Positions 243-2,270 of a stretch of DNA of 2,270 nt are shown one piece after another; within the stretch, counting starts at the first letter, position 1; every line of letters begins with the position of its first letter. The DNA is taken from the NCBI RefSeq assembly GCF_003334335.1, contig NZ_QOWQ01000090.1. The stretch is one strand, 5' to 3'. The notes under the pieces were generated by a model, which saw nothing but the letters and a program-made list of their open reading frames with translations, had not been told where the DNA came from and searched no databases. The translations under genes were made by a program, and so were the position numbers. This DNA is from Escherichia coli (GTDB lineage: Bacteria; Pseudomonadota; Gammaproteobacteria; Enterobacterales; Enterobacteriaceae).

Positions 243-915
243 GATATGGTTCTAAATTAAGCGACTTTTTCCGTGAACGTACCCGCATTACTGAAATAAG
301 AGCATCCCTGTCCAGCATCTCTGCACTACCCCGCATAGCCAACCAGTGAGGCCTGTGTGTTTTTGTCCATGTAGATTTAGCAACTCCTATGAACAGCGCT
401 AACTCCTGATGTTCATAGGTCTCACGCCCTGCCAGCTCACTCTTCACATCCTGTGCCGCCAGCCAAATCAGTTTCTTCAGACGATCCAGCGTTTTCCCTG
501 CAATTTTTCTGGTACCAGCCTGAGCTTTAAACTCACCCCATACCCATTGTGTTATAGTGACCTGATCTTCCCAGCAAACATTTCCACTGTAGCACCACAG
601 TAACCACGCCTTCTGATGTTCTTCCAGTTCCAGAACGGCACGCCGCCACGATGATGTTGCAAACTCAACCGGTCTGACCAGCGCAATTGATGAGCCTTTC
701 GCCAGTGATTGTTTACCCGGGATCGGTGGATTATCCCGCGTGATCATTTTTCCGGTTACCTCATCGCGATAACGAATTTTTTTGCGTCTGTAACGCCCTG
801 TATCGAACAGGGCATTCTCCTGCCAGGCTTCCAGCTGGCCTTTTGTCGCCCCACTGAGATCCGCAGTGGCAATCATGAGTTGCTCACGAACAAACTGTAA
901 ATACTGGTTATTCAT
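232..915 (-). CDS. Putative late-gene antitermination protein (Q-like); assignment is mainly positional, family not confirmed
   Basis: An open frame of 227 aa runs from ATG 915..913 to TAG 234..232. A GGAG Shine-Dalgarno sits at 924..921, 5 nt upstream of the ATG. The ATG overlaps the rusA TGA stop (ATGA), so I prefer it to the in-frame GTG at 921 used by the ORF track. The gene lies immediately 3' of rusA and immediately 5' of a promoter-like element and an intrinsic terminator, which is the canonical place for Q in lambdoid phages. The protein is Trp-rich with only two Cys, so it is not a Q-lambda-type zinc-finger protein. I did not recognise the family by eye. Confidence 0.55.
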   Translation of the reverse strand: MNNQYLQFVREQLMIATADLSGATKGQLEAWQENALFDTGRYRRKKIRYRDEVTGKMITRDNPPIPGKQSLAKGSSIALVRPVEFATSSWRRAVLELEEHQKAWLLWCYSGNVCWEDQVTITQWVWGEFKAQAGTRKIAGKTLDRLKKLIWLAAQDVKSELAGRETYEHQELALFIGVAKSTWTKTHRPHWLAMRGSAEMLDRDALISVMRVRSRKKSLNLEPYLAK

Positions 916-1277
916 GCGCACTCCAGTTCTGTGATTTTTATCCCCAGCCGCCCGCCAGGAACAGGCAGACCACGCACAATATTGATTTCATCAAACTGCT
1001 CATCGTCCATTAACAACCCCGCGTGCGTCAGCGCATCCAGCGGTGCTTTCAGAATATTGTCCAGGTCACGACGACGCTTATCCGGTGGCTCTGCAATAAT
1101 TTTTATTGCCAGCCGTCCGGACAGGCTTAATTTCAGTCGCTGCTGGCGAACAATAAGCGACACTGCCCGGCGATAACGCTCCCCGGCTTTTGATACAAAA
1201 TATGTGCTGCCACGGCGTCGCCAGTAAGTGTTCACCGTCGGCGGGTAAGGCAAAACAAATTCTATGCGCTCGGTCAT
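912..1277 (-). CDS. rusA: Crossover junction endodeoxyribonuclease RusA (Holliday junction resolvase)
   Basis: The 121-aa translation (MTERIEFVLPYPP...PDKRRRDLDNILKAPLDALTHAGLLMDDEQ...GGRLGIKITELECA) matches my recollection of E. coli RusA in length and in the conserved acidic motifs, here D71, D73, D92 and K77. Start is ATG at 1277..1275 and stop is TGA at 914..912. A purine-rich GGAAAG lies about 7-12 nt upstream of the ATG, inside the end of the preceding gene. Confidence 0.92.
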   Translation of the reverse strand: MTERIEFVLPYPPTVNTYWRRRGSTYFVSKAGERYRRAVSLIVRQQRLKLSLSGRLAIKIIAEPPDKRRRDLDNILKAPLDALTHAGLLMDDEQFDEINIVRGLPVPGGRLGIKITELECA

Positions 1278-2270
1278 TTATGCTTTCCACTTCAGAACAC
1301 CCGAATTTCTCGCGTGCATTAAAAAACGAATCAGCAACAACAGCTGACTGCCGTGTTTCTCTTCAAAATCTTTTACTCCGGCGTGTAGTTCGTTATGGCA
1401 TTTACGGCACAACGGAATAACAAACAAATCGTCAGCCTTTGTTCCCATACCTCCCAGTCCATGACCAATGATGTGATGCGGATCATCTGCCTGATTGCCA
1501 CACGTCATGCATTTCTGCGTTTTTACCCAGCGCGTGTATACAGGCATCTCTTCCCGTTGTGGTTTCTGGCGCTGGAGGTACTGAGCCGGAGACTCCGGAT
1601 CAACGGTGATGCTTACTAACGTCTTTTCCTGGGGTGGGGGCTGTTGCTGGTGGACGTGAAGTGGCAGCGCAATATTTTTTGTGCGCTGCTTCAGTATGCT
1701 GATGGCTGTCTGTTCTCCCGGTACGATGTCACTCTCACGGTATACGGAGCGGATTTTTTCCACCGGTAATCCCAGCGAACGACGCAATACAGACTCCGGA
1801 AGCGCATCAGCCACCTGATGACAAACCGCCCACCAGCATAACTCTGCCAGCGACAGTTCCCGCTCCTGTGTGCCATTCATTGCGTGACGTATGACATCAA
1901 TCATCCTGGCTGCCAGATTCTGCTGAGCAAGTTGATCGAGTGATTCTGATGTCTGGTCGCGCAGCTGGTTGTCACAGTGCCAGCACAACACCATCGCGCC
2001 GGTACCGTAACGGTGAATGACGGTTTCGCTGTGATGATAATCACCGTGTGGCCACTGGCAGGATTTCACGTGACGTAATAACCAGTCAGACAGTGCACCA
2101 GCGCCACCCGCAGCACGAATCACCCGTTCGTTGCTGAAAAATGGCAGTAATGTTTTATCCTCTGCCAGCGGCTGTCGAACGGCAGGAACGACTCCGGACG
2201 GCAGATTACGCATGCTTTTCGGTTCCGGCTCCACCAGTACCCGGGTATTGTGGAATACCGGCATGGATTC
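1278..2270 (-). CDS. DUF968/NinG-like phage protein with C-terminal HNH-type (His-Me finger) nuclease motif; resembles YdfU-like proteins of lambdoid prophages
   Basis: A 328-codon open frame runs from ATG at 2264..2262 to TAA at 1280..1278, and the frame stays open to the window edge at 2270, so the true start may lie upstream. The C-terminus (residues 252-294, about nt 1383..1511) reads CxxC...DPHHIIGHGLGG...LCRKCHNELH, matching the HNH pattern of two CxxC pairs, an HH dyad, an Asn and a terminal His. The stop abuts the rusA start (TAAATG). The position immediately upstream of rusA and a Q-like gene is where NinG/Rap-type genes sit in the lambdoid nin region. Confidence 0.8.
   Translation of the reverse strand, partial: ESMPVFHNTRVLVEPEPKSMRNLPSGVVPAVRQPLAEDKTLLPFFSNERVIRAAGGAGALSDWLLRHVKSCQWPHGDYHHSETVIHRYGTGAMVLCWHCDNQLRDQTSESLDQLAQQNLAARMIDVIRHAMNGTQERELSLAELCWWAVCHQVADALPESVLRRSLGLPVEKIRSVYRESDIVPGEQTAISILKQRTKNIALPLHVHQQQPPPQEKTLVSITVDPESPAQYLQRQKPQREEMPVYTRWVKTQKCMTCGNQADDPHHIIGHGLGGMGTKADDLFVIPLCRKCHNELHAGVKDFEEKHGSQLLLLIRFLMHARNSGVLKWKA

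Follow-up and report, generated by a model that had tools for sequence, protein, structure and literature searches.

Among the described systems closest to the locus analyzed here is the nin-Q region of phage 82 (X92588; Mahdi et al., 1996), where genes of the same kinds occupy the same operon position in the order orf33-orf151-orf56-orf96-rus-orf45-Q, with the small HNH-like orf96 immediately upstream of rusA and a Q gene of the same family that begins with the same ATGA overlap and has its Shine-Dalgarno (SD) sequence within the upstream gene. Gene pairs of the ATGA and TGATG type have been studied by experiment (Huber et al., 2019, 2023; PMC6728339, PMC10666635), and the junction geometry needed for termination-reinitiation has thereby been defined, with stop-to-start distances of -8 to +6 compatible with reinitiation (PMC10666635). 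RusA and the antiterminator Q have also been given as typical genomic neighbors of group 7 of the His-Me finger nucleases (DUF968 and DUF1364, including YdfU and YbcO) in a study that leaves junction geometry and coupling aside (Jablonska et al., 2017; PMC5714182). The Qin prophage of E. coli K-12 (hokD-rem-ydfU-quuQ) and the PPompW prophages of STEC share with this locus the order hok/gef, small ORF, ydfU (DUF968) and Q region, and PPompW_132418 carries an identical ydfU-rusA-Q chain with gaps of +1, 0 and -4. K-12 Qin is not known to carry rusA between ydfU and quuQ.

The window, by which we mean the whole 2,270-nt stretch of DNA analyzed here, is 100% identical to an E. coli prophage, and its gene boundaries agree with the RefSeq annotation. 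Of 5426 complete E. coli genomes, 3667 have megablast matches to it, and 1178 of these match over at least 80% of the window. It likely represents the distal part of the early-right (nin-to-Q) operon in an E. coli lambdoid prophage similar to Qin and phage 82, where the genes are likely carried on a single transcript and their translation is probably linked, to a degree that differs from junction to junction. The features that bear on this reading are as follows:

1278..2270, minus strand: DUF968 (YdfU-like) gene, 3' 993 nt (RefSeq CDS L001:8935-9993; TAA stop 1280..1278)
1329..1353, minus strand: weak terminator-like hairpin and T run in the DUF968 3' end (3 G-C pairs, G-T allowed), about 50 nt before rusA
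1275..1280, minus strand: junction 1, TAAATG, where the DUF968 stop adjoins the rusA start (gap 0, same reading frame; read directly)
912..1277, minus strand: rusA, encoding a 121-aa RusA-family Holliday junction resolvase (PDB 1q8r, NF007305, phrog_34)
921..924, minus strand: GGAG Shine-Dalgarno sequence for Q, within rusA codons Leu-Glu (GGAG or GGGG in relatives)
912..915, minus strand: junction 2, ATGA, where the Q start codon shares 4 nt with the rusA stop (read directly)
232..915, minus strand: Q, encoding a phage-82-type late-gene antiterminator of 227 aa (PF06323; RefSeq CDS L001:10356-11039; TAG stop 234..232)
214..242, minus strand: PR'-like putative late promoter, TTGCAA-17 nt-TATATT (consensus scan, 9/12 matches), its first hexamer overlapping the last Q codons
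139..159, minus strand: tR'-like putative intrinsic terminator, CCCGCCACTGGCGGG then TTTTTT (terminator scan, 6 G-C pairs and T run)

The first-pass annotation had named a nuclease-type DUF968 protein, RusA and a Q-type regulator, and these identities are upheld by profile matches and by the identity of Q to that of phage 82. The full DUF968 gene encodes 352 aa from an annotated GTG start (L001:8935) that lies 66 nt past the window end, the ATG at 2264 being internal; its product matches Pfam DUF968 (PF06147; 4.9e-64), HNHc_6 (2.9e-07) and phrog_96 'HNH endonuclease' (1.6e-164), and is homologous to orf96 of phage 82 and to the HNH protein of phiES15. The HNH/His-Me finger domain forms its C-terminal ~80 aa, where the translation reads CMTCGN...HHIIGH...CRKCHNELH, the CxxC...H...CxxCH metal-binding nuclease motif; with this motif and the DUF968 profile match, the protein belongs to group 7. 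The rusA product is similar to the characterized RusA of PDB 1q8r over essentially its full length (E 2.7e-22, residues 7-118) and conserves the acidic catalytic motifs RRRDLDN and the DD of LDDAQ/MDDEQ; its match to NF007305 (1.1e-23) scores 84 bits, under the 200-bit equivalog cut-off, and we therefore regard it as a member of the RusA family and not as the K-12 ortholog. Q matches PF06323 (1.1e-88, residues 4-220) and phrog_304 (2.4e-102) and shares 68.7% identity with the Q of phage 82 across residues 1-227, which places it in the Q82-type family; a PDB sequence search with Q gave no match to any solved structure.

Relative to phage 82, the locus differs at three points. The HNH domain is here the C-terminal part of a 352-aa protein, whereas in phage 82 it constitutes a 96-aa protein homologous to the DUF968 C-terminus (E 5e-6); the HNH/rusA gap is 0 (TAAATG) here and -4 there; and the 45-codon orf45 (ylcG) that separates rusA from Q in phage 82 is absent, so that rusA overlaps Q directly. 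Coupling across all three genes had been proposed at first. The junctions at those three genes stand, but the chain comprises four co-directional genes, since a 92-aa ORF lies beyond the window upstream of DUF968, with a 1-nt gap between its end and the DUF968 GTG; the complete series of gaps from the 92-aa ORF through DUF968 and rusA to Q is +1, 0 and -4.

At junction 1 the minus strand reads ...GTGGAAAGCA TAA ATG ACC..., so that the DUF968 stop (1280..1278) directly adjoins the rusA ATG (1277..1275), as originally described. With SD strength expressed as the predicted duplex energy with the 16S rRNA 3' tail (anti-SD), the three starts of DUF968, rusA and Q give -10.6, -3.3 and -5.9 kcal/mol, respectively, and the weak rusA sequence (GUGGAAAGCA, also given as GUGGAAAG) makes rusA the gene most likely to depend on termination-reinitiation. 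To place this junction among its relatives, we surveyed 82 loci with rusA 91-100% identical, 77 of which have an upstream ORF of at least 100 codons; among these the gap to the rusA start is 0 in 60 (TAA in 35, TGA in 25), +1 in 2 and +12 in 15. The 12-nt spacer of the last class holds a real SD (AAGAGG, -6.5 kcal/mol), consistent with a start being able to do without an SD only if it touches the preceding stop; this correlation between SD and gap rests on two allele classes only.

The shared reading frame of DUF968 and rusA, with one stop codon between them that is TGA in 25 relatives, together with the DUF968-RusA fusion architectures reported in domain databases (PMC4118853), could suggest that occasional readthrough yields a fusion nuclease. 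This is exceedingly unlikely, as the frame is not conserved across relatives (a +1 gap in two loci and a -4 overlap in phage 82 and phiES15), a fused ORF is found in 0 of the 82 loci, the stop here, TAA, is the tightest of the stop codons, and no readthrough signal is evident; we accordingly rejected it.

Junction 2 reads ...CTGGAGTGCGC ATGA ATAAC... on the minus strand, the rusA TGA (914..912) overlapping the Q ATG (915..913), and reading of the sequence bears out a GGAG at 924..921 placed 5 nt upstream of that ATG (spacer 920..916). It is thus a canonical -4 overlap with the SD in the upstream gene. A GTG at 921..919 shares the frame of this ATG, and the ORF list hence gives 232..921. The preference for the ATG at 915 that the first-pass annotation had expressed holds well: the predicted SD energy is -5.9 kcal/mol for the ATG against +0.2 kcal/mol for the GTG, RefSeq annotates the ATG, the PHROG profile begins at residue 1, and the alignment with phage 82 Q starts at residue 1, with TGC CGC and no GTG ahead of the phage 82 ATG. 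The GTG was rejected on the SD analysis and on its absence from phage 82, and the ATG at 915 is the conserved Q start. The GTG is kept in all close relatives, and conservation among them cannot discriminate between the two starts.

The tight junctions are conserved. NTGA at the Q start is invariant in 12 of 12 aligned sequences representing seven upstream gene contexts, and the overlap recurs in phage 82, Gifsy-1, Klebsiella, Cronobacter and Aeromonas phages, where the upstream genes differ. rusA is joined to four Q families (phrog_304, 127, 753 and 79), with rusA/Q junctions that are tight in every case, at -4 (-8 in two loci), -4, -4/+8 and -11/-8, respectively, and its last 6-11 codons change together with the Q family, such that the RusA C-terminal tail appears to be dictated by the Q module downstream. 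In one relative (L049) the overlap is lost through a premature stop, leaving a gap of +14; the overlap may therefore be non-essential, though L049 may be a decaying prophage.

Both gaps, 0 and -4, fall within the range of about -8 to +6 over which termination-reinitiation is compatible with stop-to-start distance, and both junctions have the geometry defined experimentally for it; we infer a single transcript and translational coupling from junction geometry and the associated features, and linked translation is plausible on these grounds. For the pairs of Huber et al. coupling was demonstrated by experiment; here it is proposed on the basis of geometry. Translation of rusA, whose SD is nearly absent and whose ATG comes immediately after the DUF968 stop, would most likely depend mainly on ribosomes terminating on DUF968 and then reinitiating. 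Q would probably use both reinitiation and de novo initiation, because its own GGAG lies at good spacing inside the rusA tail; with this adequate SD, Q might initiate independently. When the upstream gene contains an SD for its downstream neighbor, reinitiation in E. coli is usually enhanced, but such an SD is not strictly required.

The same geometry could arise as a by-product of phage genome economy and of lambdoid module recombination at gene boundaries, with no functional coupling and with de novo initiation at each gene on a shared mRNA. E. coli unidirectional gene pairs fall between -8 and +6 in 24% of cases, -4 being the most frequent single distance (PMC10666635); in the related phage PPompW_132418, 12 of 38 co-directional junctions, about a third, lie in this range and 8 of 38 are exactly -4, and in the phage 82 orf33-to-Q record all six junctions are -1, -4 or -8, whatever the gene function. 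Since tight junctions are commonest in such genomes, two adjacent ones are expected and not surprising. The switching of the last rusA codons with the Q family likewise marks the junction as a mosaic joint carrying Q's own ribosome-binding site, Q is preceded by a GGAG at 5-nt spacing, and bioBF is an E. coli ATGA pair without coupling (PMC6728339). Against this stand the touching junction kept in 60 loci despite the very weak rusA SD, which the 12-nt-spacer alleles replace with an SD of their own, and the behavior of the native E. coli -4 pairs tested, the majority of which are coupled (three of five strictly, one about 60%, and one without coupling; PMC6728339). We consider compaction without coupling a possible though rather unlikely explanation, and linked translation the better account of the locus.

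Linked translation does not amount to the stoichiometric co-expression of the two nuclease-type proteins with the regulator that had been put forward. Measured coupling in E. coli -4 pairs varies with the pair examined, from strict coupling to none, the three starts differ widely in SD, and nothing points to a complex between Q and a nuclease; subunits of heteromeric complexes are enriched among ATGA and TGATG pairs (Huber et al., 2019, 2023), but a RusA-Q complex is not known. A fixed 1:1:1 output is thus not supported.

Coupling at Q could also operate by unmasking, if a hairpin pairing the Q GGAG and AUG with Q codons 8-13 were opened only by ribosomes finishing rusA and thereby gated Q synthesis. 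The minimum-free-energy fold of 990..870 is predicted to pair GAGUGC and CAUGAAUAA with UUUGUUCGUG...GCAACUC (z = -1.9), the region from -15 to +5 of Q ranks with the least accessible start regions of the locus (mean unpaired probability 0.31), and most single substitutions in close relatives preserve pairing via G-U. The z-score is nevertheless unremarkable, the U-to-G change of the commonest allele breaks an A-U pair of the stem, and the invariant pairs are those constrained by coding. No convincing covariation emerged from pair counts over 12 sequences, five of them from distant relatives, and the count is biased in favor of the structure by its derivation from the sequence analyzed here; most pairs are broken in three to five of the five distant sequences (phage 82, Gifsy-1, Klebsiella, Cronobacter and Aeromonas), and pairing is mostly lost in these members. 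Such gating by a hairpin seems improbable.

Co-transcription of the chain is plausible, because the junctions leave no intergenic room for signals and show no promoter signal: neither of them carries a consensus promoter or a convincing terminator in scans that covered the window and L001:7800-11700. A single transcript would enter from upstream, past a strong terminator ahead of the 92-aa ORF (L001:8556-8583 in the scan), which agrees in kind with DLP12, where rusA requires a promoter supplied from upstream of the operon and is silent otherwise (PMC4118853). Internal promoters producing separate rusA and/or Q transcripts would render junction geometry irrelevant to expression, and weak 9/12 matches do occur within DUF968 (2061..2034) and just inside Q (901..872). 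Promoter-like matches are not enriched over shuffled sequence, however (4 vs. 2.3 +/- 1.3 expected), neither of these two is usefully placed ahead of a start codon, that at 901..872 would start transcription inside Q, and the silence of DLP12 rusA without its upstream promoter argues in the same direction. With only 9/12 matches, at background frequency and in unhelpful positions, internal promoters were rejected as very unlikely. The terminator-like element at 1353..1329 was treated as a chance occurrence, given its weak stem and the surrounding 131 nt, which fold no better than shuffles (z = +0.65), and an Rfam search (E <= 1) returned two chance-level matches only, far under gathering scores.

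Functionally, the transcript would end at Q, where the PR'-like promoter and tR'-like terminator come next; the tR'-like hairpin lies ~55 nt downstream of the promoter-like site and is retained in the fold. A late promoter directly after Q is the lambdoid paradigm, and the position of the PR'-like site agrees with it. Taken together, the observation of tight junctions is real and already known in kind; the arrangement is generic for lambdoid early-right operons and reveals little about this locus in particular.

The HNH-type nuclease (DUF968/DUF1364) and RusA might form a functional two-nuclease unit, with the junction serving co-translational assembly or balanced synthesis. Their order and a coupling-type junction are kept in this prophage, phage 82 and Cronobacter phiES15, and the reported fused DUF968-RusA proteins (PMC4118853) also count in its favor; we hold the proposal to be doubtful. 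If true, a physical HNH-RusA partnership would provide a function for the uncharacterized DUF968/YbcO nucleases. Otherwise the importance of the locus beyond annotation is small: the Q start is set at the ATG at 915, and rusA, having no usable SD, probably relies on the translation of DUF968. Q, the late-gene switch and in related Stx phages the toxin-gene switch, closes a gap-free chain; Q output could consequently fall, through polarity and lost coupling, when a nonsense or frameshift mutation strikes one of the nuclease genes ahead of it, which could matter when judging the inducibility of decayed prophages.

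Read directly on the minus strand, the window carries three tightly joined coding sequences, and every coordinate in the first-pass annotation proved correct, with the rusA and Q boundaries identical in RefSeq.

Coding sequences in the window
DUF968 gene, 3' 993 nt, minus strand, ending in TAA at 1280..1278
rusA, 121 codons, minus strand, from ATG 1277..1275 to TGA 914..912
Q, 227 codons, minus strand, from ATG 915..913 to TAG 234..232

At the first junction the TAA stands directly against the rusA ATG (gap 0), and at the second the Q ATG and rusA TGA overlap as ATGA, with a GGAG at 924..921, 5 nt 5' of the Q ATG. 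The window is 100% identical to positions 1203261-1205530 of the E. coli JE86-ST05 chromosome. The DUF968 start does not fall within it, as RefSeq annotates a GTG 66 nt past its end (protein of 352 aa). Outside the window, at L001:8931-8937 (L001 being the prophage locus that contains it), the TAA of a 92-aa ORF (phrog_1212, unknown function) lies 1 nt 5' of that GTG, with a GGAGG within the last codons of the ORF (GGAGGTAACGTG). The description of a chain of all three genes thus holds for the window and not as a limit; four genes (92-aa ORF, DUF968, rusA, and Q) are chained, with gaps of +1, 0, and -4 (negative values denote overlap).

The DUF968 protein matches Pfam DUF968 (4.9e-64) and phrog_96 'HNH endonuclease', with an HNH nuclease profile on residues 267-328; RusA aligns over its full length with the crystallised E. 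coli RusA 1q8r (2.7e-22), with the acidic motifs conserved; and Q matches PF06323 (1.1e-88) and shares 68.7% identity across residues 1-227 with phage 82 Q, which has been studied biochemically. The surrounding 20 kb are a lambdoid prophage in the order repressor/cro-like genes, replication genes, hokD, 92-aa ORF, DUF968, rusA, Q, tRNAs, lysis genes, terminase. Megablast matches to the window were found in 3667 of 5426 complete E. coli genomes, 1178 of them covering at least 80%. The layout 3' of Q resembles that of Stx phages (L001:12703-12954, 13125-13717), with a DNA methyltransferase followed by tRNA-Ile, tRNA-Arg, and tRNA-Arg, and a TerB-family gene and a DUF3927 gene occupying the position of stx.

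The first-pass choice of ATG 915 over the in-frame GTG 921..919 as the Q start is upheld. The predicted Shine-Dalgarno duplex is -5.9 kcal/mol for the ATG versus +0.2 for the GTG, which begins on the final G of the GGAG; RefSeq calls the ATG; profile alignments begin at residue 1 (PHROG) and residue 4 (Pfam); and phage 82 Q aligns from its own ATG, preceded by TGC CGC without a GTG. Every close relative has the GTG too, but since the RusA codons Glu-Cys create it, its conservation is uninformative. In distant phages the Q82-family gene begins with NTGA overlapping the upstream stop whichever gene lies upstream, the T, G, and A being invariant alignment columns.

Genes directly 5' of Q82-family genes
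orf45/ylcG, in phage 82 and Gifsy-1
HNH endonuclease gene, in a Klebsiella phage
rusA, in Cronobacter phage phiES15
DUF1364 gene, in an Aeromonas phage

We compared 82 loci, comprising 80 viral contigs with rusA 91-98% identical, the E. coli locus, and phage vB_EcoM-606R7; rusA starts were counted in the 77 with an upstream ORF of at least 100 codons. The gap was 0 in 60 of the 77 (upstream stop TAA in 35, TGA in 25), with a uniformly weak Shine-Dalgarno sequence (-3.3 kcal/mol), and +1 in two; the remaining 15 have a different junction, a 12-nt spacer containing AAGAGG (-6.5 kcal/mol). The pattern, drawn from just two allele classes, fits a Shine-Dalgarno sequence that may be dispensable only where stop and start touch.

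Across the 82 loci, one rusA core is joined to four Q families.

Junctions of rusA with each Q family
phrog_304 (Q82-type): -4; -8 in two loci
phrog_127: -4
phrog_753: GTGA at -4, or ATG at +8
phrog_79: -11 or -8

Loose rusA/Q junctions are solely mutational, in L049 (premature TAA) and L078 (Q disrupted). In L049 (IMGVR_UViG_651053022_000007) a single G-to-T change makes the TAA in rusA (CATGAAGAG to CATTAAGAG), shortening RusA by 6 residues and replacing the -4 overlap with a phrog_127 Q by a gap of +14; this is a naturally occurring 'uncoupled' variant. RusA is conserved (core 91-98% identical) as far as ...GGRLG[IV]KI, and its last 6-11 residues vary with the Q family (TELECA, TEVGVHE, YKIESE, YEITGDNDGA, and YPIMHEEQVKK; window 912..945; L001, L045, L051, L052, and L081), which points to a mosaic recombination joint inside the rusA 3' end. 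Each Q moves together with a ribosome-binding site of its own that lies within the RusA tail.

In native E. coli pairs, termination-reinitiation requires an overlap or a very short gap (PMC10666635), and five E. coli ATGA pairs ranged from strict coupling (three) through about 60% (one) to none (one), with a pair-dependent role of the Shine-Dalgarno sequence (PMC6728339). The translational coupling claimed for this chain stands as far as geometry, both junctions (gap 0 and -4) being coupling-competent, and no further. With gap 0 and almost no Shine-Dalgarno sequence, rusA would be the gene most likely to depend on ribosomes finishing DUF968. For Q, a minor rival account is that a predicted hairpin pairs its Shine-Dalgarno sequence and AUG with codons 8-13 and would be opened by ribosomes terminating on rusA; folding predicts the hairpin (z = -1.9), but its stem is not kept in distant relatives and the compensatory-change count is unconvincing. 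With its -4 overlap and own GGAG, Q is probably translated by both reinitiation and independent initiation. Stoichiometric co-expression of nucleases and regulator is not borne out, as the three starts differ widely in Shine-Dalgarno strength, reinitiation is not uniformly efficient, and Q shows no sign of assembling with the nucleases; as a whole, the earlier interpretation finds partial support.

The C-terminal ~80 residues of DUF968 (window 1278..1530) are homologous to small HNH-like proteins of 96-97 aa encoded directly 5' of rusA in phage 82 (orf96, E 5e-6; L083:850-1140) and phiES15 (gp18, E 6e-5, the alignment extending to the C-terminus; L087:43-336), so that an HNH-like gene joined to rusA by a coupling-type junction is a conserved pairing. 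DUF968 has been grouped with DUF1364/YbcO as His-Me finger nucleases, with RusA and Q as typical neighbours (PMC5714182), and DUF968-RusA fusions have been noted (PMC4118853). Given these homologies and reports, a putative HNH-RusA partnership is the sole place where 'balanced co-expression' may have some rationale. DUF968 and rusA share one reading frame with a single stop codon between them (1275..1280; TAA here, TGA in 25 related loci). Programmed readthrough from DUF968 into RusA is unlikely because the shared frame is not conserved (+1 and -4 variants).

The arrangement is conserved, yet it is the norm rather than the exception. Between orf33 and Q the phage 82 record has six junctions in all, of -4, -1, -8, -4, -4, and -4 (Mahdi et al., 1996), and in the related phage PPompW_132418, which has the same +1/0/-4 chain, 12 of 38 co-directional junctions lie within -8..+6 and eight are exactly -4. 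Among E. coli unidirectional gene pairs, 24% lie within -8..+6, with -4 the commonest distance (PMC10666635). There is nothing unusual in the chain: the arrangement is well known, RefSeq already annotates it, and the 1996 phage 82 record prefigured it.

Predicted transcription signals flank the chain on both sides.

Flanking signals
L001:8556-8583, outside the window, between hokD and the four-gene chain: strong intrinsic-terminator-like hairpin AACCCGCTTCGGCGGGTT, then T run TTGTTTTTT
242..214, minus strand: PR'-like promoter TTGCAA-17-TATATT, 3' of Q, its first hexamer overlapping the last Q codons
159..139, minus strand: G+C-rich terminator, ~55 nt downstream of the PR'-like promoter

Between these signals the best promoter matches were 9 of 12, at background frequency (4 vs 2.3 +/- 1.3), and none was positioned to serve rusA or Q; co-transcription from upstream is therefore a reasonable reading of the sequence signals, and the co-transcription first proposed is probable. 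A weak hairpin and T6 run lie inside the DUF968 coding sequence (1329..1353, minus strand), ~50 nt 5' of the rusA start; as a terminator this candidate was rejected, the stem being poor and the local fold no better than shuffles. The early transcribed region after the PR'-like promoter contains the -10-like repeats TAAATC and GATATT (242..139, minus strand), and this late leader region has no Rfam match. Transcription reaching Q would need readthrough of the terminator-like hairpin at L001:8556-8583, for which the lambda tR2-tR4 terminators are a parallel case. Q typically acts on a PR'/tR' layout, a promoter and then a terminator after its gene, and the pair here would yield a short terminated late leader RNA.
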